Shown piece after piece: positions 12,042 to 60,087 of a stretch of DNA of 64,000 nt; position 1 is the first letter of the stretch; each line of letters opens with the position of its first letter. The DNA comes from Eledone cirrhosa (taxonomy: Eukaryota): assembly GCA_964016885.1 (NCBI GenBank), contig OZ024740.1, positions 247,752,001 through 247,816,000 on the forward strand, written 5' to 3'. The notes beneath the pieces are model-generated. The model was given only the letters and a program-made list of their open reading frames with translations, searched no databases and had not been told where the DNA came from. The position numbers and the translations under genes were made by a program.

Positions 12042-12137
12042 AAATAGACACACCTAAAGTTTCATATATCATCCAAAGCTTGAAACTAATGACATTAATT
12101 GTTTTTGTGTCTGTTTGTCATTATTATTATTATTATA

Positions 12138-14022: not shown

Positions 14023-14050
<28 letters not shown>

Positions 14051-15990: not shown

Positions 15991-15999
15991 TCCCACGTT

Positions 16000-17284
16000 T
16001 TAGCTTTTAAATTACATTCAACACCACACCAACATCACAGAAACAAACTACGTACAAACCACCAAAATTGTACCCCCACACACATAAAAATAATAGAAAT
16101 TACACAAACAAATTACATAACATTAAAAAAAAATGTTTCCCACATCAATTGGAGACTACCGAGGGAACATCACCAAAAGAATATTCACGGATATTCTCGT
16201 GGAGAAACCCACCAATGGTCGGAGGGATGGATCACCCACCCCCTTCCTAAAGAAGAACCACAGGTAATTTTTTGTACTTCTTCCTTCTCACTTGTTTTCC
16301 TCCTATCCTAGCCAACATGGCTTCTCTCAGAGTAGGTAGCATAAATGTACGTGGCCTGGGGTTGTCTTGGAATCAGGGCCACCTGCTGAACGATCTCAGC
16401 GAGACCAGAATCTCTGAGGCACGGGCATTCACACCCATTTTCGGCGGCTACGAGGTGTACACATCTCCAAGCCGTCCCGAATTTTTTGGGGGGAGTGGTC
16501 GTGTTGTTCCGGAGAAGTCTTCTTGGACACAGAGGGTAAGTTGGTGGTAGTGGACGTGACCAGCGGAGAAGCTTTCAGGCTAGTGGCCGCCTATGCCCCA
16601 ACAGGAGCAGGACGACCTGAATTCTTCCGGCGTCTGGAGACCTTTCTTGGAACGTCCCGCTCTCTAGTGTTAGTGGGCGACTGGAACGGGATCTTAGATG
16701 CACGCTGGGATTGTGTGGGATTAGCGGATAGGGGAGGAGGGTGTAAAAGCCTCACAAACCTACTCAGGCGTTTTCAACTGTCTGACAGGTACCAATTGGA
16801 TTTCCCGAATGAGCCAATGTGGACTTGGACAAACCTCATAGGGTCATCCCGATCATATCTAGATAGAGTATTTTGTAGGGAAATAGATAGGTCTAGCATA
16901 GGCTGTCCACAGTTCAAGATAGTCAGCTACACGGACCACAAATTCGTGATCTGTGTGGTTGACTCAGATAGGCTTCATAGACAGGGACCTGGCCACAGAA
17001 AGCTGAACGCGTCATTAACAGCGCGCAAGGCCTACAGAGACCGGATTAGCGAACTAGTTAAGCGGGCGTTGACGAGGCCCATCGTCAACAACAAATGGTC
17101 GTTTTCTCTGAAAAGAGCGATTAGAATAGAGTCCAATAGGTTTCGTAAGGCTTTAGCAATAGAGAATAATAGAGCAGAGGGAGAACTAGTTAGAAAATTA
17201 GACGACGTACTTGCGGCGAAATTGGCCCTTGACCAATTCTTCAATGCAAAGCACGAAGGCTGCGTTGTCAGAGCTAGGGTGCGG
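16000..17284 (+). mobile_element. Tx1-like LINE fragment, divergent ORF1 tail (type D) plus ORF2 endonuclease
   Basis: ORF1-like end ...ILVEKPTNGRRDGSPTPFLKKNHR*; ORF2 MASLRVGSINVRG at 16317; GDWN, YLDRV, TDH motifs. Confidence 0.8.
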
Positions 17285-17352
17285 TAGGTGGTGGTGGTGT
17301 TGGTTTTGCTACTGTTTTGTAGCAGCAACAGTAGCAAAACCACCTACCGCTC

Positions 17353-20300
17353 CTTTTGCAGGTGTCGCCCGAAATATCGAAACAGTGTTAGTCACAGAGG
17401 AGGAGATGGCAGTCGCAAGGGCCATGGTGACAAGAAGTGCCAATAGAGTCTCCCTGAACCCTCTACCCGATTTTTTCCAGGACCAGCAGCTACGGACGGT
17501 GACTTACCGCACCGTAAGCAAAATCTCATATCGGGTGGAGAGAGCCACGGAGGCTCAAATCCAAAAGGCCTTAGGGTGCGTCTGGTCAGGCAAAACCCAC
17601 ATCACCCGAGGCAGAAAGTACGCCACAGTAGACGTACTTTTCGCCACCCCCCAAGAAGCGAAGTCTCACTCTTTGGAAACCCTAAAGAGTGAGAAGATAG
17701 TCTTGGTGCCCTCCTACTGCGGGCAGAAAATTCTGAGGGTCAAAGTCACCCGGTCCCACCCGACGTGCCCATACCTTGGCTTGCCGCGTCTGTCCTTGCT
17801 GGAATCGAGGACAGGACGACCATGTTGCAAGTAGAGAAAATAGGGAGTGAGAACGGGTCAGGTATAGGCATGCAAATGCTTATACAATCTGACCAGGAAT
17901 GTATCGACCCTATCCCCGATATCATATCGAGGAAGGACTCCAACTCCCTATAAGCGTAGAAGGAAGACGGCCAAAATGTTATCTCTGTGGGTCAAATGGT
18001 CACCTCAGGGCCTTTTTCCCGCAGAAGACAGCGAAGAAGAAGGCCCCTCTCCTTCCAATACCTGGTCCGCTGCTACCAAGAGCAGGGCAGGCAACAAATG
18101 CAGAAGCCCCTTCCACGGTGAGTAGGCGGGCAACGTCCGTGGCACTCGTACCAAGGCCACGGACAACTAAAGCAGCAGCATCAGTGGCGGCAACACCAAT
18201 AGCTACATTTGCAGTACCTGCACCAGCAACAAAATTGCCGGAGAGAGCTCCACTAACATCACCAACAGCCGTGGAGCACATACCCCTCCCAGACGCCACG
18301 GAATCCGACATGGAGTTTGAGGCGGGAGTGAAGTGGCAAACAGTATGCCACAAAAAACAAAAACAAAATAACCCTTAGCTTTGCCCTCCAAAAGCGAAGG
18401 CACACAAAGAGGGGTAAAGGCAGCATGGAAACTTGCAGCAACACCACCACCATCACCATCACCACCACAAGCACCACCGCCAACAACAACCACACCACCA
18501 CCAGCATCACAAAAAACACCAACAGCGCAAACAAAACAAAACACCAAACAGCAACAAGAAGAAAATAGCAACAAAATCACCCCTCCCCCAAAAGGTACAC
18601 AGCCATAAACATGGCAAAAAAAGAACTCATACAATATATAAAGCAGCACACAGACATCACAGAAAAAAACTACTAAACCCTACCAACACCAAGAAATCTC
18701 CCGACAAACATAAGCATGATTGAAATCTCAATAGAACAGTACATACTTTTAAAACAAAAATTCCCCAACGCAGTTGGAGACTTCAGAGGGTCGGTTACCA
18801 AGAGGATATACACTGACATCCGCTTGGAAACACCCATGACCAGCCAAAGGGACGGTTCTACTGTCCCTTCACCACACGATCAAGGTAAGTGACCCTTTCT
18901 CACTTGCCCCGTTTCTCATCCAACATGGCCGTACTCAGAATAGGCAGTATAAATGCACGTGACCTGGGGTCATCTTGGAAGCATGGTCACCTGCTCAACT
19001 ACCTCAGGTCACTAAACATAGATCTGGTGACCATCAGCGAGACCAGAATCTCCGAAGCACGAGCCTTTGCACCGATCTTCGGCGGCTACGATGTATTCGC
19101 ATCTCCCAGCCGTCCAGGATCAGGGGGAGGGTTGCCGTCCTTTTTCGGCCATCTTCCTGGACCCAGAAGGTAATTCGGTGGTGCTTGACGTGAGGCACCG
19201 AAGGCAACGCTTTCAGGCTAGTAGCCGTCTAAACCCCGACAGATCGACATAGACAAACTTCATAGACAAGGACCCGGTTACTGGAAGCTGAACGTGTCTT
19301 TCCCGGCGCGCAAAGCCTACAGAGACCGGATTAGCGAATTAGTTAAGCGGGCGTTGACGGGAGCGGTCGTCAACAACAGGTGGTCGTTCACCCTGAAAAG
19401 GGTAATTAAAGTAGAGTCGATTAGGTTTAGCAAAGGACTAGTGATATAGGAAAATAGAATAGAGGGCGGGCTAGTCAGAAAGCTAGAAGAGGCGTTTAGG
19501 ACAGGCATCGCAACCGACGTGCTTGCAACGAGATTGGCACTCAACCAATTCTTCAGCGCAAAACACGAAGGCTGCGTTGTCAGAGCTAGAGCGCGTGCTC
19601 TGAAACACAAGGGGACAAACTGCACGAGGGGTAAATCGCCAGGTTTGGGTGGTCTGCCCTACGAGCGTTAGGTGAACGGTCACCTGTCGCAACCGTTCAG
19701 CATCATGCGCTTGGTCCGTCAGGGTTGTTCCCTCTCGTCCCTCTTGTACGTATTGGCTCTCGAGCCGTTACTGCACAAACTGGGGGTGATGGAAGGCGTC
19801 CCACGCGAACTAGGATGCGGGAAATCCGAGTCGGCTTACGCCGACGAGGGCACCGTGGTGGTGTCGAGCACCAGACACGTGCGGCTGCTCGGCGCCGCTC
19901 TCAAGGAATACGAAGCGGTGACAGGAGCAAAGATAAACCAGGAAAGTCGGTAGACTTGCAGCTCAGCACCTGGAGAGGCAAATCCATGCCGTCCGATAGC
20001 GTCGTGGGGCGTTGGACGGATGGACCAGTTAAATTGCTCGGGGTCTGGTTTGGAACGCACCTCCAGATGGAGAAAAACTGGAGCAAGGTGACGAGTAGGG
20101 TGGCCTCCCTCACCCAGAAATGGGCCGAGAGGAAGCTGTCTCTGAAAGCATCCGTCATCTGCTACCGCCTCACCGTCGTACCTTGCCCCGGCCCAAATCT
20201 CACAAAAATGGAGCGCCTCCTCTGCCGCTTTTTGTGGAAGAGACGCGCTCCCATGGTCAGACGATCCATCTGCTGTCAACACCCGTTGCGTGGAGGACTG

Positions 20301-26371: not shown

Positions 26372-26560
26372 AAGGGCAGTCGATTGAGAGTATCGGTAGA
26401 GGGTCGGACGCCATGCTTTGCAGCAAAGAGTTACAGCTTTTATGGTCTGAGTTCAAATCCCGCCGAGGTTATCTTTGCCTTTCATCCTTACGGGGTCGAT
26501 AAAATAAAGTACCAGTAATACACTGGGATAATTGCTGGCCTTGTGCCAAAAGTAGAAACA
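26372..26560 (+). mobile_element. Full-length SINE with 11-bp TSD, inserted in the Helitron remnant
   Basis: attatctgttt at 26361-26371 and 26561-26571. Confidence 0.9.
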
Positions 26561-26669
26561 ATTATCTGTTTTGTGCACATTCCTGAGTCTAAGGAATTCA
26601 GATGCCATATTTGAACTGGTTTTTAAGTGCATAGGAGACAAACAAACGAATATTTATATACATATATGT

Positions 26670-41483: not shown

Positions 41484-41837
41484 TATTATTGTTATTATTA
41501 CTGTTTATTGTTATACTGTGTGTGTCAAATTTGTTGATAAGGAATATACGACTGTTGTTTCTTGTGTTAAAACTTTGCTGCCAAACCAAAGAATATATTA
41601 ATAATAATAATAATTATTATTATTATTAATATTATTATTATTGAATGCCATGGTTGGCGGAGACTCGGCTCTGTAAGGTATAGTCATTTTTAACCGCTAT
41701 AACAATTGTAAATTGTTTAAAACTTTAACCCTCCTCCTTGTGAGAGGGGTCTTTCTGCCCGTTATTTGGCCCTTCGGGGTTAAATAACCGCTTATTGGGG
41801 ATTAGTGCCCAATATTCATTTTAAACCCCAAAAAAAC

Positions 41838-43953
41838 ATGGCTACAAAAAATAATTTTTACAAGTCACTCCAACTCATTCCGTCTTCTTCCTCAATCATC
41901 ACTACATCAGAGAGAAGATTGTCTCTCTCTACCTCCCTTCTCTAAATGTGTCTCTCTCCCTCCCTTCTCTTTCGCAAGCGACGCCAGTAAAGAAAAAGAA
42001 AAATATAGTTTCTGATAGTTTCCAAGAGCACGTGCATAACGTGGAACATTACTCCACGACGACGACAACGACGAAATATGTGTGCGGTAAATACGGAAAG
42101 CCATTTCATTCGTCTGACGTCATGAATAATAGCAGTAGCAGACCTAATAACAGCAGCAGCAGCAACAGTGACAGGGAAAACAATAGTAGCAGCCGCAACA
42201 GCAGCAGCAGCATAAACAACAACAACAGCAGCAGCAACAACAACAACAACCACAGCAACAGCGGCGGCGGCAGTCGTAGTACCAGCAGCAACAACAAAAG
42301 TAACAGCAGCTCTGACGACAACAACAACAACAACAACAAAGAAAAACCAATCTCGTTTGCAGGTATCGCAAAGAACCTGGATACCATCCTTATAATAAAT
42401 GAGGAATTACAGGAAGCAAAGAAGATGGTGACGAAAACCGGACACCGAGCAATCTGCAAGGCAGCCGAAAAATTGTTCGAAACCCAACAGCACTGTACGG
42501 TCACGTACTGTACAGTAAGCACAAAATCCCGTAGGGTTGAAAGAGCCACGGAGGCTCAAATACAAAAATCTTTGGGGTCTGTGTGGCAGCGGAAAACGGA
42601 TATCACCCGAGGCAAGAAATATGCCACCGTGGACGTGCTTTTTTCCACACCCCAGGAGGCAAAGGCTCAATCCTTAGTGACCCTAAGGAGCGAGGAAATG
42701 ATGTTGGTGCCCTCCTACTGCGGACAACAAATTGTGAGGGTCAAACTGACCCACGTCCCCCCGGGATGGCTCCTTCTTGGCTGGCCGCGTCTGTCCTTGT
42801 CGGAATCGAGGACAAAAAACTGTACTGCAAGTACAGAAAAAAGTAAGAGAAGATTGGGTCGGGACCTCCATTGAGATGTTAATCCAAACCAACCAGGGAT
42901 GCATCGAAGCTATCCCGGATGTGATAGACTTCGATAACAGCACTCAACAGCCCATAAGTGTTGAGGGCAAACGCCCGAAATGCTTTCACTGTGGATCGAA
43001 GACTCACCTCAGGGCCTTCTGCAATGAGAAGACCCTGAGAAAGGAGAAAACCCCCCTCCTTCCGAAACCGGCTCCACTGCTACCAGCAACAGGACAAGCG
43101 GCAAGCAGAAAGGATAGGTCCGTGGCACCCATACCCACGCCACGGAAATCAAGAACAGCAGCAGCAGTGGAAGTATTTACAACAACATCAATACCAACTG
43201 CAGCTGCAACAGAGACGCCACTGCAAACATCACCAACAACAACAAGTGAAAGAGTGGAGCTGGTACCCCTCCCCGACCTCACAGAATCGGACATGGAGTG
43301 TGAGGTAAGAGAGGGATGGCAAAAGGTCGCAAGTAGGCACAAACGCAGAAGCAGCGCATCGTCGCCTTCGAAAAGGGAGGAAAGAAATGAAAAAAGGCTA
43401 CTGCAAAGAGACTTACAGCAGCAATACCACCAACACCATCACCACCCACACTAGCACCACCATCACCACCGGTGGCAACACCACCGCAAACAACAACACC
43501 TTCAACACCAGCACCACAAGCACCAACATCGCAAACACAGCAACAAAACACACACACCCTGCAACAACGACAAGAAAATAGCAGAACCACAACCCACCCC
43601 CATAAAAACAAATGCACAGCAATAAATACACACAACAAGAAACTAATGACTTACATAATTGAACACACAGACATTTCACAGCACGACTACATAATACCAG
43701 ACCAATCAAAACACCAACGAACATAAGAGTGGTAAGAAAAGCACAGAAGCAATACACAAACATTAAAAGGAAATTCCCCAACGCAGTTGGTGATTTCAGA
43801 GACCTAGGAGGGACTCTCAACCAAAGAGTATATTTGGATATACTCACAGAAGAGCCGACAACCAGCCGAAGGGACGATTCAACGGTCCCTTCACCAGACG
43901 ATCAAGTGAAAAGGGATGGAGAAACCATCCTTTCTCTACGAGAAGTAAGGTAG
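41838..43953 (+). pseudogene. ORF1 type B, frameshifted
   Basis: Split ORFs homologous to 53841-55937. Confidence 0.9.
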
Positions 43954-43987
43954 GTGGTCTTTCCCATCTTTTCCACTCCATTTCAAC

Positions 43988-46900
43988 ATGAGCACACTCA
44001 GAATAGGCAGCATAAATACGCGTGGCCTGGGGTCATCATGGAAGCAGGGCCACCTGCTCAACGACCTCAGGTCACTAAAGATAGATGTAGTGGCCATCAG
44101 CGAGACCAGAATCTCCGAAACACGGACCTTCGCACCGATCTTCAGCGGCTACGATGTGTACGCATCTACCACACGTCTTGGATCGGGAGGAGGAGTTGCT
44201 GTGCTTTTTCGGAGAGGTTTAGTTCTCGCCATACGGGCCATCTTCCTGGACCCAGAGGGTAAGCTGGTGGTGCTGGACGTGACCAGCGGAGACGGGCAAG
44301 CTTTCAGGCTAGTGGCCGTCTATGACCCGACAGGAGCAGGGCGGCCTGATTTCTTCCGGCGTCTGGAGACCTTTCTTGAAACGTCCCGCTCTCTAGTGTT
44401 AGTGGGCAACTGGAACGGGATCTTAGATGCACGCTGGGATTGTGTGGGATTAGCGGATAGGGGAGGGGGTGCAAGAGCCTCACCAATCTGCTCAGGCGTT
44501 TTGAACTCTCTGACAGGTACCGATTGGATTTCCCGAATGTTCCAATGTGGATATGGACAAATCGCATAGGGTCATCCAGATCATATCTAGATAGAGTATT
44601 TTGTAGGGAAATAGATAAGTCTAGCATAGGCTGTCCACAATTCAAGATAGTCAGTTACACGGACCACAAATTCGTGATCTGTGTGCTTGACTTAGATAGG
44701 CCTCATAGACGAGGACCCGGCTACTGGAAGCTAAACGCGTCCTTACCAGCGAGCAAGGCCTACAGAGACCGGATTAGCGAACTAGTTAAGCGGGCGTTGA
44801 CGGGAGCCATCGTCAACAAGTGATGGTTTGCTCTGAAAAGAGTGATTAGAATAGAGTCCATTAGGTTTAGTAAGGCTTTAGCAATAGGGAAAAATAGAGC
44901 AGAGGGAGAACTAGTTAGAAAATTAGACGAGGCGCTTAGCAGAGGCATCGTGACCGACGTACTTGCGGCGAAATTGGCCCTTGACCAATTCTTCAATGCA
45001 AAGGACGAAGGCTGCGTTGTCAGAGCTAGGGTGCGTGCTCTCAGACACGAGGGGACGAAAGCCGTTCAATGGGCCCGAGTGGCGGAGGCGCGTCGTGGCA
45101 ACACAGCCACGATCCGGTCTTTGGTGAACTACGACGGGCGCATGCTACTCGATCCCGGGCAAATGTGTGAAGCTTTTCAGCGACACTTCGCTCAACTGTT
45201 CGGGGGCAGCGGCGGGCCGGATCGAGGGATGGACTTTAGTGTCTATCTCGACGGGCTGCCGCGGCCCTCGGCCACTGAGGCGGAGTGTTGCGAAAAGTCG
45301 ATAACAGCCGCTGAAGTACGGGAGGCAATGACTGGCTAAACAAGGGGTAAATCGCCTGGTTTGGATGGTCTTCCCTATGAACTTTACGTACAAATGCCAG
45401 ACTTGTTCGGAGGCCTCTTGGCGTACGTCTACTGCAACTGGCAACAGAACGGGAGAATTCCCAGCTCTGTGAGCCGAGAAGCGGTGGCGCTGCTGAGATA
45501 GAATCCGAACAAGGGGGATAACATAGATAATTTTAGGCCCATAACCCTGCTAAACACAGAGTTCAAGATTTTGGCCAAGGTGCTAGCAAAGAGGTTGGCG
45601 CTTGTCGTTGGTGGTCTGGTGGGAGAGGCGCAGACATGCGCCATTCCCGACAGATCCATCCACGACAACCTCCACCTCATGCGATACATCGTAGAGAGGG
45701 TAGCTAGGGAACCTGGCACGGGTGGGTCTTTGATAAATTTAGATCAGTCGAAAGCTTTCGATAGGGTCGACCATCGTTACCTAGCGGCAGTCTTGAGGGC
45801 GGCTGGATTTGGGCCCGTCTTCAGAGGCTGGATCGCTGCCATGCACGGCGACATCTGCTCTGTGGTGAGAGTGAACGGTCACCTTTCGGAACCGTTCAAC
45901 ATAATGCGCTCGGTCCGCCAAGGATGTCCCCTCTCGTCCCTCTTGTACGTATTGACTCTCGAGCCATTACTGCACAAACTGGAGACGTTGAGGGGGGGTC
46001 CCGCGCGAACTAGGATGCGGAAGATCCGTGTCAGCATATGCGGACGATGTCACCGTAGTGGTGTCGAACGCCAAACACATCGAGGCGATCGGCACTACAC
46101 TAAGAGAATACGAAGCGGTGACAGGAGCAATGATCAACCAGGAAAAGTCAGTGGGCCTGCAGCTCGGCACCTGGAGAGGCAGGTCCATGCCGTCTAACAG
46201 CGTCGTCGGGCGCTGGACGGACGGACCGGTTAAATTGCTAGGGGTCTGGTTCGGTCCGGACCTCCAGACGGACAAAAACTGGGACGAGGTGACGAGCAGG
46301 GTGGCTTCTCTCACCCAGAAATGGGCAGAGAGGAAGCTATCCCTGAAAGGTCGAGCGGAGGTGGCTAACGCGTACATCGCGTCCGTAATCTACTTCAGCA
46401 TGACCGTTGTACCTTGTCCTAAGCCCCGCCTGACTGTGCTGGAGCGTTTGCTCTTTCGCTTTTTTTGGAAGGGTCGCGCTCCGATAGTCAGGCAGTACAT
46501 CTGCTGTCAACACCCGCTACGTGGAGGGCTGGCCATGCCGTGGCTGATGATGCGCAGACACGCGCTCAGGCTACGACATCTCCACCTCTTCTTCGGCGGT
46601 GCTCAGGTGTGGTCGCCGTTTGCTAGACGCGTCTTTCCCCAGCTCGTCTACTTGACGGAGCTGCAGTCCTGGGTCAAGCAAAGACCGAGGGGGAGCTCTT
46701 GGAGACTGGAATGTCTTCAGGCGCTCACAGCCCTCGACCAATCAGGCAATGTGATCGGTGGAAACTCCACCTTGGCGTTCTATAGAGGATTAGTGGAGGG
46801 GAAGAGCGACGACGTACTTGGAGAAACTCTAGGCGGCGACGAAAATCAACTAGCCAATCTCTTCGGACGGACTTTCGGGCCGGGGCCTATGGACAACTTC

Positions 46901-47404
46901 CAGAAATCCCTGGCCTGGCAGTGTTACCGGGGAGCTTTGCCAGTTCGTGATAAACTCTACAGGCATGGAGGTGCCGTCAGCCGGGCATGTCCGAGATGCG
47001 CGCAGGGCGACGAAACCGTCCTGCACGCACTCGTCCAGTGTCCGAGCATTGCTGACTTGTGGGTTTATGTCGAACACCTGCTGTCACGCGTAGGACGGAT
47101 CCAGCTATCAGCTGAGTCCATCGTGATGATTGCCCCTCCCTCTTCCTTTAGCCGGGAAGGGCAGGCAGTTTTTATCTGTCTGGTGGCCATGGCGAAAGAG
47201 ATAGTATGGTGGACACGTTTGAAAGGGCTGAAGACGAGCACTTACCTCTTCGGTGATGCCCTGATTAACTTTTTCAAATTTCATTTGAAAAGGAAAATCA
47301 GGGTAGAGAGGGAACTGCTCTCTTCCCAGCATTTTGTTGAAAGATGGGTGAGAGAGGCAAGAATGGCCCTAGTGAATGGGCCTACTCTGAGTATGTGTCT
47401 GTAA
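43988..47404 (+). pseudogene. ORF2 (APE-RT-CCHC) with frameshifts and stops
   Basis: Pieces 43988-44569, 44524-44823, 44842-45339, 45571-46197, 46028-47404. Confidence 0.92.
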
Positions 47405-47648
47405 ATTAAAGGTGGAAAACTGGGAGAGGGCACTTGCCCTGGTGGTCAGGGTCACTGTGGTCTTTTAATGGGCTTTCTCCACAAATGTCCCTCGGAAGTC
47501 TCCTCCCTATTGGGGAATTTTTCTTTGTTATTTTATTACATCCTCTGTTTTTTTTTACACGCAGAAATGCCCATTTGTACCGTCCTGTGTTGTCCTGTAC
47601 TGTCCTTAATGTCTACTTTATGTAAACCCTTGTGGTCAATAAAGAAAA

Positions 47649-47706
<58 letters not shown>

Positions 47707-47914
47707 GGCGACCTACGTAGGAAATCGTATTATCGTGAGCTCCGCAAAGGTTTGTTATTTCCGTTTGTTTAAAAATTGCCATTTATGGAAAATTTTATTG
47801 TAAAATGTTTATAAGCACACATACATTGTTTTCCGAAAAGGACACCCAAAAAGATTGGGGCCTTGTGCCCAAAATTTTAACTTTTATTATTATCCAAAAA
47901 TTTCTTTGAAAAAA

Positions 47915-49885
47915 ATGGCTAATTCCCCTCTGCACGAAGCAGCTGAAAGCCTTCCTCACAAAATAACACCTCACACCGACACCACCATTGTAAATGTTAC
48001 TACGTTTGCCAACACAAAAAAAAATATAAGCAGTAGCAATATTTTAAATTTGTCTCAGGCAGACATTCATTTCCCGCCATTACCAATGACTGCAGGTGTT
48101 AAACCCTCCACCACCACCACCACCGCGACAACAGAAACAAAAGAAGAAAAAAATAAATTAACTCGTGACGTCGAAATGAAATCAAGCAAAATGGACTCTT
48201 CTCCACCAAAGACGACTGACGTCACCACCACCACAACTGAAAATAAAATTAATATTAACGATAGCAACAACAACAACAATGACATTATAAAACCGACCCT
48301 CAGTTTCGCCATCGTAGCAAAACAATTCGAAGCGTTCACGGTAACTCAAGAAGATTTAGAAAATGCCAAACAAATGGTAAAGAAAGATGGGTACAGGGTC
48401 AGCCTCACGCCCCCCCCCCCCACCCCCACCTAATAAAATGGAGCATCGGCGCCTGTGCACCGTGTCGTATAGAACAATAAATGTAAAATCGCGCCGAGTG
48501 GAACGGGCATCCGAGTCCCAAATCCAAAAAGCTTTGGGACATGTGTGGGCAAGAAAAACCCACATCAGACGTGGGCAAAAGTATGGAACCGTGGATGTGT
48601 TCTTTGAAACACCAGAGGAGGCTAGAGAACACTCCATGGCCCCATTAAAAAGTGACGACCTCACACTCATCCCAAGCTATTGTGGCCAGAGACTCGTAAA
48701 GATCAGGGTGACCCACGTTCCACCGGCCATCGAAATTCCCTGGCTAATAGCGGCTGTCCTCGCCGGCATCGAAGCCAACACGAAAATAATAGCAGTAGCA
48801 AAAGACAAGCAGGAAAACTGGTCCGGATCTGGGATGGAGCTCCTGATCCAAGCGGACCAAAAAAGCATTGAGGAGATCCCAGAGGTAATAGACCTCACTG
48901 ACGGCAGCCACCTCACGGTAATTGTCGAGGGCAGAAGACCTAGGTGTGTCGTTTGTGGTGAAGGAACCCACCTAAGGGCTTTCTGCCCTCAGGCTAAAAG
49001 GTTGAGGCCACCTCTCCTACCCACCCCAGTGACACAACCATCAACACCACCAGTAGCAGAGATGGCAGCAACAACTGTAGCAGCAACAACAGAAGCAACT
49101 ATAACAGCAACAACCCCAGCAACAGTAGCAAAACCAACACCACTACCACCACCAGCAAAACCAACACCACCACCACCCAACGCTTCAGAACTAGCACCAG
49201 CGCCTACACCATCCACCACACCACAACCAAAACTAACGGCTGTGGAGGATTTTCCACTCCCCGGCCTATCACAACTGGAGACAGATTGTGACGACGAGGA
49301 GTGGGAAACGATATCCGGAAAAAAAAAAGAAACCAAAAAAGAAAAAATTCTCTTCCTTCCCCCTCCAAAAACAAAATACAGAGGGAAACAAATAAACTAA
49401 GAAACAAAAAAGTTAGGACAGATATGCCACCATCCACACCAGCATCACCAACCCCATCAACCCAAACACCAACACCATCACCATCATTATCCCCAGCACC
49501 ACAATCACCTACACCACAAAAGTCACCAAAATGCGAAACAGAAACAAACCCACAACAAACGCATACAAAACAAAACAACCAAAACGATACACACTACACA
49601 TCATTAAATTTGAACAACAAGCAATTATTACACTACATCCAACACAACACCAGCATCACAGAAAAAGACTACACAACAACCCCAAAATTCACACCACCTC
49701 CACACATACAAATCACTCGCATCACACAGAAAACGTACATGACACTAAAACAAAAATTCCCCAAAGACATCGGAGACTTCCGACAAGCACTCTCCAGGAG
49801 GATTTATAAGGACATCCTTCCTGAGGAGGCCACAAGCAGTGAAAAGGATGGAAAAGCCGTCCTTCCCCTACGAGAAGTAAGGTAA
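47915..49885 (+). pseudogene. ORF1 type A (nucleic-acid binding, CCHC knuckle), two homopolymer frameshifts
   Basis: MANSPLHEAA...; CVVCGEGTHLRAFC; frame changes at the C-run ~48410-48430 and A-run ~49319-49328. Confidence 0.88.
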
Positions 49886-49919
49886 GTGGTCTTTCCCATC
49901 TTTTCCACTCCTTTTCAAC

Positions 49920-52900
49920 ATGACCTCACTCAGAATAGGCAGCATAAATGCGCGTGGCTTGGGGTGGTCATGGAAGCAGGGCCACCTGCTCAACGACCTC
50001 AGGTCACTAAACATAGATGTAGTGGCCATCAGCGAGACCAGAATCTCCGAAGCACAGGCTTTCGCACCGATCTTCGGCGGCTACGATGTGTACGCATCTC
50101 CCAGCCGTCCGGGATCGGGGGGAGGATTTGCTGTGCTTTTTCGGAGAGGTTTGGATCTTGCCATACGGGCCATCTTCCTGGACCCAGAAGGTAAGTTGGT
50201 GGTGCTGGACGTGACCAGCGGAGACGGGCAAGCTTTCAGGTTAGTGGCCGTCTATGCCCCGACAGGAGCAGGGCGGCCTGATTTCTTCCGGCGACTGGAG
50301 ACCTTTCTTGGAACGTCCCGCTCTTTAGTGTTAGTGGGCGACTGGAACGGGATCTTAGATGCACGCTGGGATTGTGTGGGATTAGTGGATAGGGAAGGAG
50401 GGTGCAAGAGTCTCACCAACCTGCTCAGACGTTTTGAACTGTCTGACAGGTACCGAATGGATTTCCCGAATGTACCAATGTGGACTTGGACAAATCGCAT
50501 AGGGTCATCCAGATCATATCTAGATAGAGTATTTTGTAGGGAAATAGATAGGTCTAGCATAGGCTGTCCACAATTCAAGATAGTCAGCTACACGGACCAC
50601 AAATTCGTGATCTGTGTGCTTGACTTAGATAGGCTTCATAGACGAGGACCCGGCTACTGGAAGTTAAACGCATCCTTACCAGCGCGCAAGGCCTACAGAG
50701 ACCGGATTAGCGAACTAGTTAAGCGGGCGTTCACGGGGGCCATCGTCAACAACAAGTGGTGGTTTGCTCTGAAAAGAGCAATTAGAATAGAGTCCATTAG
50801 GTTTAGTAAGACTTTAGCAATAGAGAAAAATAGAGCAGAGGGAGAATTAGTTAGAAAATTAGATGAGGCGCTTAGCAAAGGCATCGCGACCGACGTACTT
50901 GCGGCGAAATTGGCCCTTGACCAATTCTTCAATGCAAAGGACGAAGGCTGCGTTGTCAGAGCTAGGGTGCGTGCTCTCAGACACGAGGGGACGAAAGCCG
51001 TTCAATGGGCCCGAGTGGCGGAGGCGCGTCGTGGCAACAAAGCCAGGATCCGGTCTTTGGTGGACCACGACGGGCGCATGCTACTCGATCCCGGGCAAAT
51101 GTGTGAAGCTTTTCAGCGACACTTCGCTCAACTGTTCGGGGGCAGTGGCGTGCCGGATCGAGGGATGGACTTTAGTGTCTACCTCGACGGACTGCCGCGG
51201 CTTTCGGCCACTGAGGCGGAGTGTTGCGAAAAGCCGATAACAACCGCTGAAGTACGGGATGCAATGACTAGTTGCACAAGGGGTAAATCGCCTGGTTTGG
51301 ATGGTCTGCCCTATGAACTTTACGTACAAATGCCAAACTTGTTCGGAGGCCTCTTGGCGGACGTCTACTGCTTCTGGCAACAGAACGGGAGAATTCCCAG
51401 CTCTGTGAGCCGAGGAGCGGTTGCGCTGCTGAGAAAGGATCCGAAAAAGGGGGATAACATAGATAATTTTAGGCCCATAACTCTGCTAAACACAGAGTTC
51501 AAGATTTTGGCCAAGGTGCTAGCAAAGAAGTTGGCGCTTGTCGTTGGTGGTCTGGTGGGAGAGGCACAGACATGCGCCATTCCCGACAGATCCATCCACG
51601 ACAACCTCCACCTCATGCGATACATCGTAGAGAGGGTAGCTAGGGAACCTGGCACGGGTGGGTCTTTTATCAATTTAGATCAGTCGAAAGCCTTCGATAG
51701 GGTCGACCATCGTTACCTAACGGCAGTCCTGAGGGCGGCTGGCTTTGGGCCCGTCTTCAGAGGCTGGATCGCTGCCATGCACAGCGACATCTGCTCTGTA
51801 GTGAGAGTGAACGGTCACCTTTCGGAACCGTTCAACATCATGCGCTCGGTCCGCCAAGGATGTCCCCTCTCGTCCCTATTGTACGTATTGACTCTCGAGC
51901 CATTACTGCACAAACTGGAGACGTTGAGGGGGTCCCGCGCGAACTAGGATGCGGAAGATCCGTGTCAGCATATGCGGACGATGTCACCGTAGTGGTGTCG
52001 AACGCCAAACACATCGAGGCGATCGGCACTACACTAAGAGAATACGAAGCGGTGACAGGAGCAATGATCAACCAGGAAAAGTCAGTGGGCCTGCAGCTCG
52101 GCACCTGGAGAGGCAGGTCCATGCCGTCCAACAGCGTCGTCGGGCGCTGGACGGACGGACCGGTTAAATTGCTAGGGGTCTGGTTCGGTCCAGACCTCCA
52201 GACGGACAAAAACTGGGACGAGGTGACGAGCAGGGTGGCTTCTCTCACCCAGAAATGGGCCGAGAGGAAGCTATCCCTGAAAGGTCGAGCGGAGGTGGCG
52301 AATGCGTACATCCCATCCGTCATCTACTACCGCCTGACCGTCGTACCTTGTCCTAAGCCCCGCCTGACTGCGCTGGAGCGTTTGCTCTTTCGCTTCTTGT
52401 GGAAGGGACGCGCTCCGATGGTCAGGCAGTCCATCTGCTGTCAACACCCGCTACGTGGAGGGCTGGGCATGCCGTGGCTGATGATGCGCAGACACGCGCT
52501 CAGGCTACGACATCTCCACCTCTTCCTCGACGGTGATCAGGTGTGGTCGCCGTTTGCAAGACACGTTTTTCCCCAGCTCGTCTCCTTGACGGAGCTGCAG
52601 TCCTGGGTCAAGCGAAGACTGAGAGGGAGCGCTTGGAGACTGGAATGTCTTCAGGCGCTCACAGCCCTCGACCAATCGGGCAATGTGATCGGTGGAAACT
52701 CCACCTTGGCGTTCTATAGGGGATTAGTGGAGGGGAAGAGCGACGACGTACTTGGAGAAACTCTAGGCGTCGACGAAAATCAACTAGCCAATCTCTTCGG
52801 AAGGACTTTCGGGCCGGGGCCTATGGACAACTTCCAGAAATCCCTGGCCTGGCAGTGCTACCGAGGAGCTTTGCCAGTTCGGGATAAACTCTACAGGCAT

Positions 52901-53338
52901 GGAGGTGCCGTCAGCCGGGCATGTCCGAGATGCGCGCAGGGCGACGAAACCGTCCTGCACGCACTCGTCCAGTGTCCGAGCATTGCTGACTTGTGGGTTT
53001 ATGTCGAACACCTGCTGTCACGTGTAGGACGGATCCAGCTATCAGCTGAGTCCATCGTGAGGATTGCCCCGCCCCCTTCCTTTAGCCTGGAAGGGCAGGC
53101 AGTTTTTATCTGTCTGGTGGCCATGGCGAAAGAGATAGTATGGTGGACACGTTTGAAAGGGCTGAAGACGAGCACTTACCTCTTCGGTGATGCCCTGATT
53201 AACTTTTTCAAATTTCATTTGAAAAGGAAAATCAGGGTAGAGAGGGAAGTGCTCTCTTCCCAGCATTTTGTTGAAAGATGGGTGAGAGAAGCAAGTATGG
53301 CCCGAATGAATGGGCCTTCTCTGAGTATGTGTCTGTAA
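49920..53338 (+). pseudogene. ORF2 with a single frameshift in a G-run (~51930)
   Basis: ORFs 49920-51947 and 51860-53338 together match 55973-59392. Confidence 0.92.
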
Positions 53339-53580
53339 ATTAAAGGTGGAAAACTGGGAGAGGGCACTTGCCCTGGTGGTCAGGGCCACTGTGGTCTTTT
53401 AATGGGCTTTCTCCACAAATGTCCCTTGGAAGTCTCCCCCCTATTGGGGAATTTTTCTTTGTTATTTCATTTCAACCTCTGTTTTTTTACACGCAGAAAT
53501 GCCCATTTGTACCGTCCTGTATTGTCCTGTACTGTCCTTAATGTCTACTTTATGTGAACCCTTGTGGTTAATAAAGAAAA

Positions 53581-53626
<46 letters not shown>

Positions 53627-53840
53627 GAATGCCATGGTTGACGGAGGCTCGGCTCTGTAAGGTATAGTAATTTTTAACCGTTAAAACAATTGTAAATTGT
53701 TTAAAACTTGAACCAAATTGTTGATAAAGACACCCTCCTCCTCGTGAGAGGGGTCTTTCTGTCCGTTATTTGGCCCTTCGGGGCTAAATAACCAGTTATT
53801 GGGGTTTTGAACCCAATATTCATTTTAAACAAAAAACAAC

Positions 53841-55937
53841 ATGGCTACGAAAAAGAAATTTCATACGTCACTCCCACTCATTCCGTCTTCTTCTTCCTCA
53901 ATCATCACTACAGCAGAGAGAAGATTGTCTCTCTCCCTCCCTTCTTTAAATGTGTCTCTCTCCCTCCCTTCTCTTTCGCAAGTGACGAAAGAAAAGAAAA
54001 GTCTCGTGCAAAGCGTGCAAAGTTTTTCCACGACGACGACGACAGCGACGAAACAGGTGTGCGGGAAATACGAAAACCCAGTTCATTCGTCTGACGTCAG
54101 GAATAATAGCAGTAGCAGCCGTAATAACAACAGCAACAGTGACAATGAAAACAACAGTAGCAGCCGCAACAGCATCACCAGCAGCATAAACAACAACAGC
54201 ATTAGCAGCAGCAACACCAACAACAACCACAGCAACAGCGGCGGAGGCAGTAGTCGTAGTACCTGCAGCAACAACAAAAGTACCAGCAGCTCTGACGACA
54301 ACAACAACAGCAGAGACAAACCAATCTCATTTGCAGGTATTGCGAAAAACTTGGAAACAATCCTCATAACAAATGAGGAATTAGAGGTAGCGAAGAAGAT
54401 GGTGACAAAGAACGGACACCGAGCAATCTGCAAGGCAGCGAAAAATTTTTTCGAAACCCAAGAGCAGTGTACGGTCACGTACCGTACAGTAAGTACAAAA
54501 TCCCGTAGGGTGGAAAGAGCCACAGAGGCCCAAATACAAAAAGCCTTGGGGTCTGTGTGGCAGAGGAAAACGCACATCACCCGAGGCAAAAAATACGCCA
54601 CCGTAGACGTACTTTTTGCCACACCCCAGGAGGCAAAGGCCCAATCAGTAGTGACCCTAAGGAGCGAGGAAATGGTGTTGGTGCCCTCCTACTGCGGGCA
54701 AAAAATTGTGAGGGTCAAACTGACCCACGTCCCCCCCGAAATGACCCCTTCTTGGCTGGCCGCGTCTGTCCTCGTCGGAATCGAGGACAAAACAACTGTA
54801 CTGCAAGTACAGAAAAAAGTAAGAGAAGATTGGGTCGGCTCCTCCATTGAGATGCTAATCCAAACCAACCAGGAGTGCATCGAAGCTATCCCGGATGTGA
54901 TAGACTTCGATAACGGCACTCAACTGCCCATAAGTGTTGAGGGCAAACGCCCGAAATGCTTTCGCTGTGGATCGAAGACTCACCTCAGGGCCTTCTGCAA
55001 CGAGAAGACCCTGAGAAAGGAGAAAACCCCCCTCCTTCCGAATCCGGCTCCACGGCTACCAGCAACAGGACAAGCGGCAACCAGGAACGATAGGTCCGTG
55101 GCACCCATACCCACTCCACGGAAATCAAAGACAGCAGCAGCAGTGGAAATATTAACAACAACAACAGCAATACCAAATGCAGCTGCAACAGAGACTCCAG
55201 TGCAAACATCACCAACAACAACAAGTGAAAGAGTGGAGCTGGTACCCCTCCCCGACCTTACAGAATCAGACATGGAGTGTGAGGTGGGAGAGGGATGGCA
55301 AAAGGTCGCAAGAAGGCACAAACGCAGAAGCAGCGCATCGTCGCCTTTGAAAAGGGAGGAAAGAAATGAGAAAAGGGTAAAGTCTACTGCAAAGAGACCC
55401 ACAGCAGCAACACCACCAACACCATCACCACCCACACCAGCACCACCATCACCACCGGCGACAACCCCACCGCCAACAACACCTTCAACACCACCACCAC
55501 AAGCACCAACATCGCAAACACAACAACAAAACACACACACCCAGCAACAACGACAAGAAAATAGCAGAACCACACCCCACCCCCAGAAAAACAAATGCAC
55601 GGCAATAAACACACACAACAAGAAACTAATGACTTACATAATTGAACACACAGACATTTCACAACAGGACTACATAATACCAGCACCAATCAAAACGCCA
55701 ACTAACATAAGACTGCTAAAAATAGCACAGAAACAATACACAAACATTAAAACGAAATTCCCCAACGCAGTTGGTGATTTCAGGGACCTAGGAGGAACCA
55801 TCAATCGAAGAGTATATTCAGACATTCTCTTAGAAGAGCCGACGACCAGCCGAAGGGACGATTCAACGGTCCCTTCACCAGACGATCAAGTGAAAAGGGA
55901 TGTAAAAACCATCCCTCCTCTACCAAAAGTACGGTAA
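53841..55937 (+). CDS. LINE ORF1 protein, 698 aa (S/N-rich N-terminus, putative RRM-like core, CCHC knuckle, P/T-rich linker)
   Basis: CFRCGSKTHLRAFC = CX2CX4HX4C; position upstream of ORF2. Confidence 0.9.
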   Translation: MATKKKFHTSLPLIPSSSSSIITTAERRLSLSLPSLNVSLSLPSLSQVTKEKKSLVQSVQSFSTTTTTATKQVCGKYENPVHSSDVRNNSSSSRNNNSNSDNENNSSSRNSITSSINNNSISSSNTNNNHSNSGGGSSRSTCSNNKSTSSSDDNNNSRDKPISFAGIAKNLETILITNEELEVAKKMVTKNGHRAICKAAKNFFETQEQCTVTYRTVSTKSRRVERATEAQIQKALGSVWQRKTHITRGKKYATVDVLFATPQEAKAQSVVTLRSEEMVLVPSYCGQKIVRVKLTHVPPEMTPSWLAASVLVGIEDKTTVLQVQKKVREDWVGSSIEMLIQTNQECIEAIPDVIDFDNGTQLPISVEGKRPKCFRCGSKTHLRAFCNEKTLRKEKTPLLPNPAPRLPATGQAATRNDRSVAPIPTPRKSKTAAAVEILTTTTAIPNAAATETPVQTSPTTTSERVELVPLPDLTESDMECEVGEGWQKVARRHKRRSSASSPLKREERNEKRVKSTAKRPTAATPPTPSPPTPAPPSPPATTPPPTTPSTPPPQAPTSQTQQQNTHTQQQRQENSRTTPHPQKNKCTAINTHNKKLMTYIIEHTDISQQDYIIPAPIKTPTNIRLLKIAQKQYTNIKTKFPNAVGDFRDLGGTINRRVYSDILLEEPTTSRRDDSTVPSPDDQVKRDVKTIPPLPKVR

Positions 55938-55972
55938 GTGGTCTTTCCCATCTTTTCCACTCTATTTTAAAC

Positions 55973-58900
55973 ATGACCTCACTCAGAATAGGCAGCATAA
56001 ATGCGCGTGGCTTGGGGTCGTCATGGAAGCAGGGTCACCTGCTCAACGACCTCAGGTCACTAAACATAGATGTAGTGGCCATCAGCGAGACCAGAATCTC
56101 CGAAGCACGGGCCTTCGCACCGATCTTCGGCGGCTACGATGTGTACGCATCTCCCAGCCGTCCTGGATCGGGTGGAGGAGTTGCTGTGCTTTTTCGGAGA
56201 GGTTTGGATCTCGCCATACGGGCCATCTTCCTGGACCCAGAGGGTAAGCTGGTGGTGCTGGACGTGACCAGCGGAGACGGGCAAGCTTTCAGGCTAGTGG
56301 CCGTCTATGCCCCGACAGGAGCAGGGCGGCCTGATTTCTTCCGGCGTCTGGAGACCTTTCTTGGAACGTCCCGCTCTTTAGTGTTAGTGGGCGACTGGAA
56401 CGGGATCTTAGATGCACGCTGGGACTGTGTGGGATTAGCGGATAGGGGTGGAGGGTGCAAGAGCCTCACCAACCTGCTCAGGCGTTTTGAACTGTCTGAC
56501 AGGTACCGATTGGATTTCCCGAATGTACCAATGTGGACTTGGACAAACCGCATAGGGTCATCCAGATCATATCTAGATAGAGTATTTTGTAGGGAAATAG
56601 ATAGGTCTAGCATAGGCTGTCCACAATTCAAGATAGTCAGCTACACGGACCACAAATTCGTGACCTGTGTGCTTGACTTAGATAGGCTTCATAGACAAGG
56701 ACCCGGCTACTGGAAGCTAAACGCGTCCTTACCAGCGCGCAAGGCCTACAGAGACCGGATTAGCGAACTAGTTAAGCGGGCGTTGACGGGGGCCATCGTC
56801 AACAACAAGTGGTGGTTTGCTCTGAAAAGAGCGATTAGAATAGAATCGATTAGGTTTAGTAAGGCTTTAGCAATAGAGAAAAATAGAGCAGAGGGAGAAC
56901 TAGTTAGAAAATTAGACGAGGCGCTTAGCAAAGGCATTGCGACCGACGTGCTTGCGGCGAAATTGGCCCTTGACCAATTCTTCAATGCAAAGCACGAAGG
57001 CTGCGTTGTCAGAGCTAGGGTGCGTGCTCTCAGACACGAGGGGACGAAAGCCGTTCAATGGGCCCGAGTGGCGGAGGCGCGTCGTGGCAACAAAGCCACG
57101 ATCCGGTCTTTGGTGGACCACGACGGGCGCATGCTACTCGATCCCGGGCAAATGTGTGAAACTTTTCAGCGACACTTCGCTCAGCTGTTCGGGGGCAGCG
57201 GGGGGCCGGGTAGAGGGATGGACTTTAGTGTCTACCTCGACGGACTGCCGCGGCTCTCGGCCACTGAGGCGAAGTGTTGCGAAAAGCCGATAACAGCCGC
57301 TGAAGTAAGGGAGGCAATGACTGGCTGCACAAGGGGTAAATCGCCTGGTTTGGATGGTCTGCCCTATGAACTTTACGTACAGATGCCAGACTTGTTCGGA
57401 GGCCTCTTAGCGGACGTCTACTGCAACTGGCAACAGAACGGGAGAATTCCCAGTTCTGTGAGCCGAGGAGCGGTGGCACTGCTGAGAAAGGATCCGAACA
57501 AGGGGGATAACATAGACAATTTCCGGCCCATAACTCTGCTAAACACAGAGTTTAAGATTTTGGCCAAGGTGCTAGCAAAGAGGTTGGCGCTTGTCGTTGG
57601 TGGTCTGGTGGGAGAGGCGCAGACATGCGCCATTCCCGACAGATCCATCCACGACAACCTCCACCTCATGCGATACATCGTAGAGAGGGTAGCTAGGGAA
57701 CCTGGCACGGGTGGGTCCTTGATCAATTTAGATCAGTCGAAAGCTTTCGATAGGGTCGACCATCGTTACCTAGCGGCAGTCCTGAGGGCGGCTGGCTTTG
57801 GGCCCGTCTTCAGAGGCTGGATCGCTGCCATGCACAGCGACATCTGCTCTGTGGTGAGAGTGAACGGTCACCTGTCGGAACCGTTCAACATCATGCGCTC
57901 GGTCCGCCAAGGATGTCCCCTCTCGTCCCTCTTGTACGTATTGACTCTCGAGCCATTACTGCACAAACTGGAGACGTTGAGGGGAGTCCCGCGCGAACTA
58001 GGATGCGGAAGATCCGTGTCAGCATATGCGGACGATGTCACCGTAGTGGTGTCGAACGCCAAACACATCGAGGCGATCGGCACTACACTAAGAGAATACG
58101 AAGCGGTGACAGGAGCAATGATCAACCAGGAAAAGTCAGTGGGCCTGCAGCTCGGCACCTGGAGAGGCAGGTCCATGCCGTCCAACAGCGTCGTCGGGCG
58201 CTGGACGGACGGACCGGTTAAATTGCTAGGGGTCTGGTTCGGTCCGGACCTCCAGACGGACAAAAACTGGGACGAGGTGACGAGCAGGGTGGCTTCTCTC
58301 ACCCAGAAATGGGCGGAGAGGAAGCTATCCCTGAAAGGTCGAGCGGAGGTGGCTAACGCGTACATCGCGTCTGTCATCTGCTACCGCCTAACCGTCGTAC
58401 CTTGTCCTAAGCCTCGCCTGACTGCGCTGGAGCGTTTGCTCTTTCGCTTTTTGTGGAAGGGACGTGCTCCGATGGTCAGGCGGTCCATCTGTTGTCAACA
58501 CCCGCTACGTGGAGGGCTGGGCATGCCGTGGCTGATGATGCGCAGGCACGCGCTCAGGCTACGACATCTCCACCTCTTCCTCGACGGTGATCAGGTGTGG
58601 TCGCCGTTTGCTAGACGCGTTTTTCCCCAGCTCGTTTCCTTGACGGAGCTGCAGTCCTGGGTCAAGCGAAGACCGAGAGGGAGCGCCTGGAGACTGGAAT
58701 GTCTTCAGGCGCTCACAGCCCTCGACCAATCGGGCAATGTGATCGGTGGAAACTCCACCTCGGCGTTCTATAGAGGATTAGTGGAGGGGAAGAGCGACGA
58801 CGTACTTGGGGAAACTCTAGGCGTCGACGAAAATCAACTAGCCAATCTCTTCGGAAGAACTTTCGGGCCAGGGCCTATGGACAACTTCCAGAAATCTCTG

Positions 58901-59392
58901 GCCTGGCAGTGCTACCGAGGAGCCTTGCCAGTTCGGGATAAACTCTACAGGCATGGAGGTGCCGTCAGCCGGGCATGTCCGAGATGCGCGCAGGGCGACG
59001 AAACCGTCCTGCACGCACTCGTCCAGTGTCCGAAAATTGCTGACTTGTGGGTTTATGTCGAACACCTGCTGTCGCGTTTAGGACGGATCCAGCTATCATC
59101 TGAGTCTATCGTGAGGATTGCCCCGCCCTCCTCATTTAGCCGGGAAGGGCAGGCAGTTTTTATCTGTCTGGTGGCCATGGCGAAAGAGATAGTATGGTGG
59201 ACACGTTTGAAAGGGCTGAAGACGAGCACTTACCTCTTCGGTGATGCTCTGATTGACTTTTTCAAATTTCATTTGAAAAGGAAAATCAGAGTAGAGAAGG
59301 AAGTGCTCTCTTCCCAGCATTTTGTTGAAAGATGGGTGAGAGAAGCAAGAATAGCCCGAGTGAATGGGCCGACTCTGAGTATATATCTGTAA
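55973..59392 (+). CDS. LINE ORF2 protein, 1139 aa: APE endonuclease, reverse transcriptase, C-terminal CCHC
   Basis: GSINARG, ISETR, GDWN, YLDRV, TDH; KSPGLDG, FRPITLLN, LDQSKAFDRVDH, QGCPLS, YADD; CPRC..ETVLHALVQC; WKLNASL typical of L1/Tx1. Confidence 0.97.
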   Translation: MTSLRIGSINARGLGSSWKQGHLLNDLRSLNIDVVAISETRISEARAFAPIFGGYDVYASPSRPGSGGGVAVLFRRGLDLAIRAIFLDPEGKLVVLDVTSGDGQAFRLVAVYAPTGAGRPDFFRRLETFLGTSRSLVLVGDWNGILDARWDCVGLADRGGGCKSLTNLLRRFELSDRYRLDFPNVPMWTWTNRIGSSRSYLDRVFCREIDRSSIGCPQFKIVSYTDHKFVTCVLDLDRLHRQGPGYWKLNASLPARKAYRDRISELVKRALTGAIVNNKWWFALKRAIRIESIRFSKALAIEKNRAEGELVRKLDEALSKGIATDVLAAKLALDQFFNAKHEGCVVRARVRALRHEGTKAVQWARVAEARRGNKATIRSLVDHDGRMLLDPGQMCETFQRHFAQLFGGSGGPGRGMDFSVYLDGLPRLSATEAKCCEKPITAAEVREAMTGCTRGKSPGLDGLPYELYVQMPDLFGGLLADVYCNWQQNGRIPSSVSRGAVALLRKDPNKGDNIDNFRPITLLNTEFKILAKVLAKRLALVVGGLVGEAQTCAIPDRSIHDNLHLMRYIVERVAREPGTGGSLINLDQSKAFDRVDHRYLAAVLRAAGFGPVFRGWIAAMHSDICSVVRVNGHLSEPFNIMRSVRQGCPLSSLLYVLTLEPLLHKLETLRGVPRELGCGRSVSAYADDVTVVVSNAKHIEAIGTTLREYEAVTGAMINQEKSVGLQLGTWRGRSMPSNSVVGRWTDGPVKLLGVWFGPDLQTDKNWDEVTSRVASLTQKWAERKLSLKGRAEVANAYIASVICYRLTVVPCPKPRLTALERLLFRFLWKGRAPMVRRSICCQHPLRGGLGMPWLMMRRHALRLRHLHLFLDGDQVWSPFARRVFPQLVSLTELQSWVKRRPRGSAWRLECLQALTALDQSGNVIGGNSTSAFYRGLVEGKSDDVLGETLGVDENQLANLFGRTFGPGPMDNFQKSLAWQCYRGALPVRDKLYRHGGAVSRACPRCAQGDETVLHALVQCPKIADLWVYVEHLLSRLGRIQLSSESIVRIAPPSSFSREGQAVFICLVAMAKEIVWWTRLKGLKTSTYLFGDALIDFFKFHLKRKIRVEKEVLSSQHFVERWVREARIARVNGPTLSIYL

Positions 59393-59653
59393 ACTAAAGG
59401 TGGAAAACTGGGAGAGGGCACTTGCCTTGGTGGTCAGGGTCATTGTGGCTTTTTACTGGGCTTTCTCCACAAATGTCCCTCCGAAGTCTCCCCCCTATTG
59501 GGGAATTTTTCATTGTTATTTTCATTGTTATTTTTGTTACATCCTCTGTTTTTGTTTTTTTTACACGCAGAAATGCCCATTTGTACCGTCCTGCATTGTC
59601 CTGCACTGTCCTTAATGTCTACTTTATGTAAACCCTTGTGGTTAATAAAGAAA

Positions 59654-59705
<52 letters not shown>

Positions 59706-59706
<1 letters not shown>

Positions 59707-59900
59707 AGGGCGGTGAATTGGCAGTATCGGTAGAGGGTTGGACGCCATGCTTTCTAGCATAGTTACGTCCCTTTACGGTTTGAGTTCAAATCCCGCTGAG
59801 GTTAACTTTGCCTATCATCCTTACGGTGTCGATAAAATAAAGTACCAGTAATGTACTGGGTAATTGCTGGCCTTGTGCCTAAAGTAGAAACAATTATTAT
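59706..59900 (+). mobile_element. Full-length SINE inserted at the end of the LINE tail
   Basis: A and B boxes; attattattataa on both sides (59695-59707, 59893-59905). Confidence 0.9.
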
Positions 59901-60087
59901 TATAATTTGGGAGGGTCATGCTGCCAAGAAATCTTTAAAACAAATACAAAAACGAAATATATATATATATATATATATTTCGCTCTTATAGCTCTGTTTC
60001 ATCTGAATTATTGAGCCCTCTGCCGCTCATTTCGAATATTGTTTATCGTGAACTCGTGCGCCGATTTTTCGATACTCGATCTTTCTA

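Follow-up and report, generated by a model that had tools for sequence, protein, structure and literature searches.

A single-origin hybrid LINE family in Eledone cirrhosa with an unusual, possibly spliced, founding join

Family B of the non-LTR retrotransposons considered here is a hybrid LINE of single origin: its elements follow a family termed P up to the splice donor at the end of ORF1 and take their ORF2 and 3' end from a second family, A. The two parents, the breakpoint, the single origin, the amplification of the hybrid and the existence of P-then-A pairs in the genome are all shown by the data. Comparison of the sequences around the join further suggests that B may have been founded by one spliceosomal joining of P's donor to a CAG in A, a reading to which we assign a probability of about 0.5.

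Family B is a hybrid of families P and A

The window, i.e., the whole stretch of 64,000 nucleotides analyzed, stems from a 3.0-Gb assembly and carries a head-to-tail B-A-B array at 41.6-59.7 kb as well as broken copies of A, D and C at 9.4-22.6 kb, all belonging to the same type of two-ORF non-LTR retrotransposon with (ATT)n ends and all located on the plus strand. The third unit of the array, B2 (53627..59703), is a full-length family B copy with 5'UTR, ORF1, ORF2 and 3'UTR, its (ATT)n tail occupying positions 59656-59703. ORF1 of B2 (53841..55937; 698 aa) contains a C-X2-C-X4-H-X4-C knuckle, carries two tails in series at its C-terminus and matched no Pfam family above cut-off, while the intact ORF2 (55973..59392; 1,139 aa) encodes an apurinic-type endonuclease, a reverse transcriptase and a zf-RVT domain. 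The array further comprises the family A copy A2 (47707..53626) and B1 (41643..47706, start approximate), a family B copy of an older type. The broken copies include a 3'-truncated A copy, A1 (9440..12042), a family D copy (14049..17283) and a 5'-truncated family C copy (17284..19242). At the transition from D to C (17283-17350) a short inverted (hairpin) segment leads into the truncated C in a manner resembling twin priming, the break not being at a splice site.

The initial annotation had described B as a chimera of a C-like ORF1 exon and an A tail, and all five junctions on which this description was based were found in place. In C, the ORF1 exon stops at a 5' splice site of consensus form (18884/18885), A carries a CAG, the candidate acceptor, at 49839/49840 in A2 and at 11555/11556 in A1, and in B the C-like exon end runs straight into A sequence at 55890/55891 in B2 and, in the same way, at 43906/43907 in B1, with one G more than in A. 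Two G are present in 30/30 A loci where B has three. The founding junction in B2 occupies positions 55889..55892 and contains a 2-nt AG common to both parents. As had been proposed, two homologous ORF1 tails stand in series in B, TVPSPDDQ being followed by VKRDGETILSLREVR at 43.9 kb and by VKRDVKTIPPLPKVR at 55.9 kb. The C-type position homologous to A's CAG lies about 41 nt before the donor; the two halves of B are thus joined out of register, with about 42 nt of ORF1 tail present twice. In the genome, the 22-nt exon end has 2,748 exact matches and the first 30 of these loci are B copies with the same junction in 26 and C copies in four cases, which suggests about 2,400 copies of B; A has 2,267 exact matches. 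The junction is thereby confirmed as a family-wide feature and not an accident of one copy.

While the hybrid with an A tail stood, C had to be replaced as its 5' donor family. It was rejected as parent on the basis of 77-80% identity, as compared to approximately 90-95% for P, and of its position far outside in trees; C is a relative of the 5' parent only. Among the loci matching a B-type exon end that is followed by a donor (81 exact matches in the genome), 29 of the first 30 belong to P, a sister family that ends at a consensus donor, possesses an ORF2 of its own and has its 5' end in common with B. These 29 P loci are 87-95% identical to B upstream of the junction, most of them more than 90%, and 83-89% identical to A downstream of it, and the donor is present at B's break point in every one (29/29). 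Over whole elements, B tracks P up to the junction and A beyond it. The P-derived module of B2 (53627..55890; 5'UTR and ORF1 up to P's donor), recognized by window identities and trees, shows 86-96% identity with P copies in 200-nt windows, as against 62-74% with A, whereas the A-derived module (55891..59655; second ORF1 tail, inter-ORF region, ORF2 and 3'UTR) is 95.6% identical to A2 over 3,812 nt and 78-86% to P.

Trees were derived for the upstream 450-500 nt, one search each and with truncated rows left out (nine in one tree, 15 of 114 in the other). In them C is located far outside and B forms a single ladder-like clade inside P, the nesting receiving support of 97/89 in the tree of 114 rows, the bootstrap of which is rough. 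As B is one clade within P and corresponds to A after the junction, it arose once, from P and an old A. It then amplified through a ladder of subfamilies and is one of the two largest families here. Ancestry is discordant on either side of one breakpoint shared throughout B, which is what characterizes an inter-family recombinant.

The donor motif at the ORF1 stop and the extra base

In each of five divergent lineages, namely A, C, P, D and E, a consensus 5' splice site lies over the stop codon of ORF1. It does so in two reading frames, giving Arg-stop in A and D and Gly-Lys-stop in C, P and E. Family E shows 73-75% identity in ORF2 and has an ORF1 tail that cannot be aligned. Within the window the motif is found at 11597, 16263 (D, cut 16263/16264), 18884, 43949, 49881 (A2, cut 49881/49882) and 55933, and outside it also at locus L319; the motif in B2 is A-derived and overlaps the ORF1 stop (55931..55939, cut 55933/55934). 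It is intact in 56/66 A, 100/111 B, 55/63 P, 27/29 C and 5/6 D junctions, counts in which some loci overlap and for which P and part of C were chosen for the donor. To judge from sequence, the donor looks selected. Among distant relatives from metagenomes (22-42% identity), a donor-like motif precedes ORF2 in one of the 27 checked, out of 80 loci, and the motif is therefore restricted to the clade. Its retention on the ORF1 stop in five lineages constitutes a separate conserved signal.

Further sites of this kind were noted. Candidate roles of the ORF1-stop donor are protection by U1, rare splicing and ORF2 translation; a pyrimidine tract is located between it and ORF2. A second consensus donor, at 50190 in the endonuclease domain, is retained by A, C, P and D but has been lost from E, and it is weakened in young B. 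In the A/B 3'UTR, the poly(A) signal is preceded by a strong acceptor-like site (53496 and 59570); in P the AG is absent from this position, but a CAG lies closer to the signal. The idea that ORF2 is a designed intron, the removal of which yields an ORF1-only RNA, was rejected, as P and C lack an AG at the 3'UTR site and as no corresponding retrocopy was found: an exact-pattern genome search for the 3'UTR join returned one, unrelated, match vs. nine control matches. A potential mini-intron of 52-67 nt can be delineated at 49882-49933 in A2, 55934-55986 in B2 and 16264-16330 in D, and its removal is in frame for A, B and D. A mini-intron of 52-53 nt fusing ORF1 to ORF2 was likewise rejected, since no intron-less genomic copy of A or B was found and the fusion is not in frame at the first CAG in C and P.

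With regard to the extra G of B, it had been assumed that it restores the A reading frame. The base is dispensable in this respect: when the G is left out, the open frame continues for 13 codons and its stop comes 4 nt sooner, so a requirement for the G in keeping ORF1 open was rejected. Its sole effect on ORF1 is that the stop returns onto the donor, and it is needed neither for ORF1 nor for ORF2. Descent of the G from an older A was not supported either, the G-rich A variant yielding eight and seven matches vs. 2,267 and 378 for the usual form. G-rich A variants are scattered in the tree, and P lies upstream in 22/22 matches of the oldest B form.

B copies whose ORF1 is most similar to that of P mostly have TGG behind the join, as opposed to TGA in later B and in A, and all of them carry the extra base. 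Most of the least-derived copies differ from A at two places at most 8 nt from the join. When 25 diagnostic columns were compared, the TGG form was seen on each of the two basal branches as well as on the stem of the later lineage, while two little-derived copies (L298 and L300) combine the TGA form with the extra base. Thirty loci chosen by an unchanged P-like upstream stretch comprise six with TGG and none without the extra base, and the five exact B copies in which this base is missing are either nested or of mosaic make-up, without a clearly basal one among them. A clean P/A ancestor is not visible among the B copies examined. The extra base may be founder noise, or it may have been selected to hold the stop on the donor.

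Possible splicing and its alternatives at the founding join

If splicing founded B, a P-then-A head-to-tail pair would have been transcribed by read-through past P's poly(A) signal, and the spliceosome would have joined P's ORF1-end donor to A's CAG just before A's own ORF1 end, in cis or in trans. The hybrid RNA would then have been copied back into the genome by A's ORF2, and one base would have been gained at or soon after founding, bringing the ORF1 stop back onto the donor. Both the use of the donor and that of the weak acceptor are steps that we infer. In our judgement, read-through is likelier than joining in trans within the splicing reading. Pairs of the kind needed exist: among 54 P loci, 42 retain the 3' end, which is directly followed by an A-type 5' end in 4/42 and by a B 5' end in 2/42 cases. 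The A-type starts behind P are full-length and 84-96% identical to A2, and three were confirmed as A at their own junction.

The alternative named in the initial annotation is a template switch of the reverse transcriptase at the 2-nt AG, or annealing there of an A cDNA truncated at its 5' end to an RNA or a genomic copy of P, in which case the match to the donor is a coincidence. This is the accepted route for mosaic L1 families, including the acquisition of an older 5' end by a young 3' end, the combination seen in B (PMC3600994), and in-register exchanges are common in B's own clade (the C/P swap and the single copies L035, L040, L042 and L048). Against it stands the low chance of such a match. 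When all P x A joins were enumerated for one P and one old A copy, a donor-plus-YAG product made up one of 7,666 joins in the last 100 nt before ORF2, namely the observed one, and 2/17,101 and 10/65,653 in windows of 150 and 300 nt. Under three microhomology weightings its chance is 0.012-0.2%, similar across windows that represent an assumed viable range, with the join treated as clean and with a single event noticed post hoc; for a donor-compatible break in P alone the chance is 0.5-4.8%. A switch would moreover have left unused longer microhomologies and an ORF2 of 82-90% identity. One of the unused microhomologies, of 5 nt, lies 5 nt downstream of the donor; a switch there requires a second deletion, and it was rejected because the predicted intermediate has no match in the genome.

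On the other hand, features of the join itself favor a template switch. The acceptor is weak, and an extra base by the join suits template jumping, jumping by the R2 reverse transcriptase requiring non-templated addition (PMC8857657). The weakness of the pyrimidine tract had been noted at the outset and was borne out, 104 of the 184 YAG sites in A2 having at least as many pyrimidines; a further AG precedes A's CAG by 1 nt, and a much better site follows 94 nt downstream. Stronger downstream acceptors would, however, delete the ORF2 start, so that only the product of the weak CAG could found a family. Taken together, we regard a template switch as a serious alternative that is somewhat less likely than splicing.

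A third explanation is a microhomology-mediated deletion at the DNA level in a genomic P-then-A array, removing P's ORF2 and A's ORF1. Apart from the P-then-A pairs, many microhomology deletions in copies speak for it, one of them starting at a donor (L158) and one at the old junction (L118). In L158 the deleted segment has the donor as its exact start and a non-AG site with 3-nt microhomology as its end, and donor-exact breaks thus also arise without splicing. We nevertheless consider such an origin of B unlikely, since its chance of landing on a donor plus YAG is equally low and since it demands two partners that are still intact, the usual objection to DNA recombination (PMC3600994).

Further products from the same donors were sought in the genome by exact patterns. 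For retrocopies spliced from the P/C donor, a first pattern gave nine matches, all B mutants or a deletion, and a second gave 48, of which the 47 read are all B variants or a 5-nt P deletion; for the A/B donor there were zero and six matches, the six being small indels or one deletion. Exact patterns cover part of the possible junctions and RNAs lacking ORF2 would be poorly mobilized, so these negative results weigh lightly. Other exons joined to A's CAG gave five matches, three of which are by place known B copies without the extra G (the others, L426 and L427, matched in text and place only), and the internal ORF2 donor pattern gave four (L430-L433), matched in text and place only. Among the matches listed for contigs of five runs, the kind of which is unknown or guessed, none showed a joint starting at the donor, which was not counted as evidence. 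In one run of unknown kind (X6), contig depth over 55700-59650 is about 100-fold higher towards the 3' end, with which 5' truncation and poly(A) bias both agree.

A fourth explanation depends on the donor while dispensing with a completed splice: a reverse transcriptase copying A may have jumped onto the free 5' exon of P released in the first splicing step, or A RNA may have been ligated to it. A break precisely at the donor, an acceptor of poor quality and one base too many would all be accounted for at once, and human mRNA/L1 chimeras are often donor-exact with the acceptor missing (10.1101/2025.02.02.635956). It would call for a short-lived nuclear intermediate and leave the CAG on the A side partly to luck, and the genome searches with donor patterns revealed no second example; we hold it to be quite improbable.

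In the weighing of these readings, a chance of one in 500 to one in 8,000 under switching stands against a low prior for splicing, a weak acceptor, one additional base and no second case. Of the proposal that splicing between elements made B, the donor-exact hybrid has been substantiated, while the splicing step itself is weakened by the acceptor, by oldest copies that are not clean and by the missing second product. A wider proposition can be put forward tentatively, with somewhat less than even odds: the clade would keep a functional, U1-binding donor at the ORF1 stop, insertion of elements into each other's (ATT)n tails would allow read-through splicing to shuffle ORF1 onto a neighbor's ORF2, and one such spliced RNA would have founded a dominant autonomous family of thousands.

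Element class, known systems and other exchanges

B is an L1-group non-LTR retrotransposon. Exo_endo_phos, RVT_1 and zf-RVT in ORF2 of B2 all score above cut-off, and among solved structures, in which few LINE clades are represented, human L1 ORF2p is the best match (E 2.5e-53, residues 5-854), followed by R2 with 1e-21. B2 also has the separate upstream ORF1, the poly(A) signal and the simple-repeat tail of this group. The closest named relative of ORF2 is a protein of Argonauta hians (74%), which fits a cephalopod host, and no named Tx1 reference was present among the ORF2 relatives found. Tx1-like elements are microsatellite-targeting members of the L1 group and resemble B in having two ORFs, an ORF2 of the order APE-RT-zinc finger and a repeat tail. 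Full-length starts sit after (ATT)n both in the window and at P loci, target duplications being unreadable within the repeat; as full-length copies begin right after (ATT)n, head-to-tail arrays result.

As an inter-family recombinant, B is of a known kind, with an unusual, possibly spliced, founding join. The mouse families L1MdTf and L1MdGf are new families combining an older 5' end and ORF1 with a younger ORF2 (Sookdeo et al., 2013, PMC3600994), and they resemble B and its relatives in having one lineage-wide breakpoint and in several exchanges between co-existing families. The mouse breakpoints lie inside ORF2, whereas in B the join falls on a donor, is not in register and leaves the ORF1 tail doubled. 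The means by which LINEs exchange their 5' ends and ORF1 have long been in question, and the treatment of routes in that work names DNA recombination, heteroduplex formation and strand switching by the reverse transcriptase, splicing not being among these three (PMC3600994). Because one genome preserves the two parental families, their breakpoint, the tandem order and the line of descent of the hybrid, the splicing route is directly testable with RNA.

Spliced L1 copies have been described as SpIREs, within-element deletions that make up about 1.8% of full-length human L1, for which splicing was demonstrated in RNA and which were called dead ends (Larson et al., 2018, PMC5860796). B shares with them a retrotransposed LINE the junction of which matches a donor and, as a candidate in B, an acceptor, and in the SpIRE case, too, a conserved donor is rarely used (PMC5860796). 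The junction of B lies at a splice donor and a CAG is present on the acceptor side, albeit a weak one and with an extra base in the oldest copies. In contrast to SpIREs, B joins two elements and is not a deletion within one, keeps the promoter and both ORFs, and gave rise to a large family instead of a dead end. If the splicing reading is true, splicing can create retrotransposon lineages and not only kill them. In human mRNA/LINE-1 5' chimeras, the 5' exon breaks off precisely at a donor and continues into L1 in sense orientation, and trans-splicing has been proposed (10.1101/2025.02.02.635956); these are single insertions with a host gene as 5' partner, whereas the partner in B is a LINE and the product a family of thousands. 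Titles and abstract starts of the open-licence literature yielded no report of splicing between units founding a LINE family.

Splicing is not the general mechanism by which modules are swapped in this clade. The initial annotation had suggested as much, on the understanding that breakpoints scattered away from splice sites in other chimeras would speak against it, and such breakpoints were found: the C/P swap and several single recombinants break in register inside ORF1 or ORF2 and off the ORF1-end donor, in the manner known from mouse L1 (PMC3600994). ORF2 is common to C and P only from about 370 nt after its start, three single P copies (L035, L040 and L042) contain tracts of C that start 180-197 or 289-333 nt beyond the donor, and in L048 the change from B to P falls 296-450 nt ahead of the donor. 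The switch interval of L035 includes a second donor-like motif inside ORF2, and an in-register swap there neither confirms nor excludes use of this motif.

Two minor features of the window may be added. On the minus strand, a series of open frames of 130-290 codons extends over 6146-9445 and 12869-13540. A SINE-like repeat of about 200 bp is present at 149-331, 12135-12338, 26360-26565 and 59704-59907, often directly after (ATT)n tails, and likewise follows P tails at other loci.
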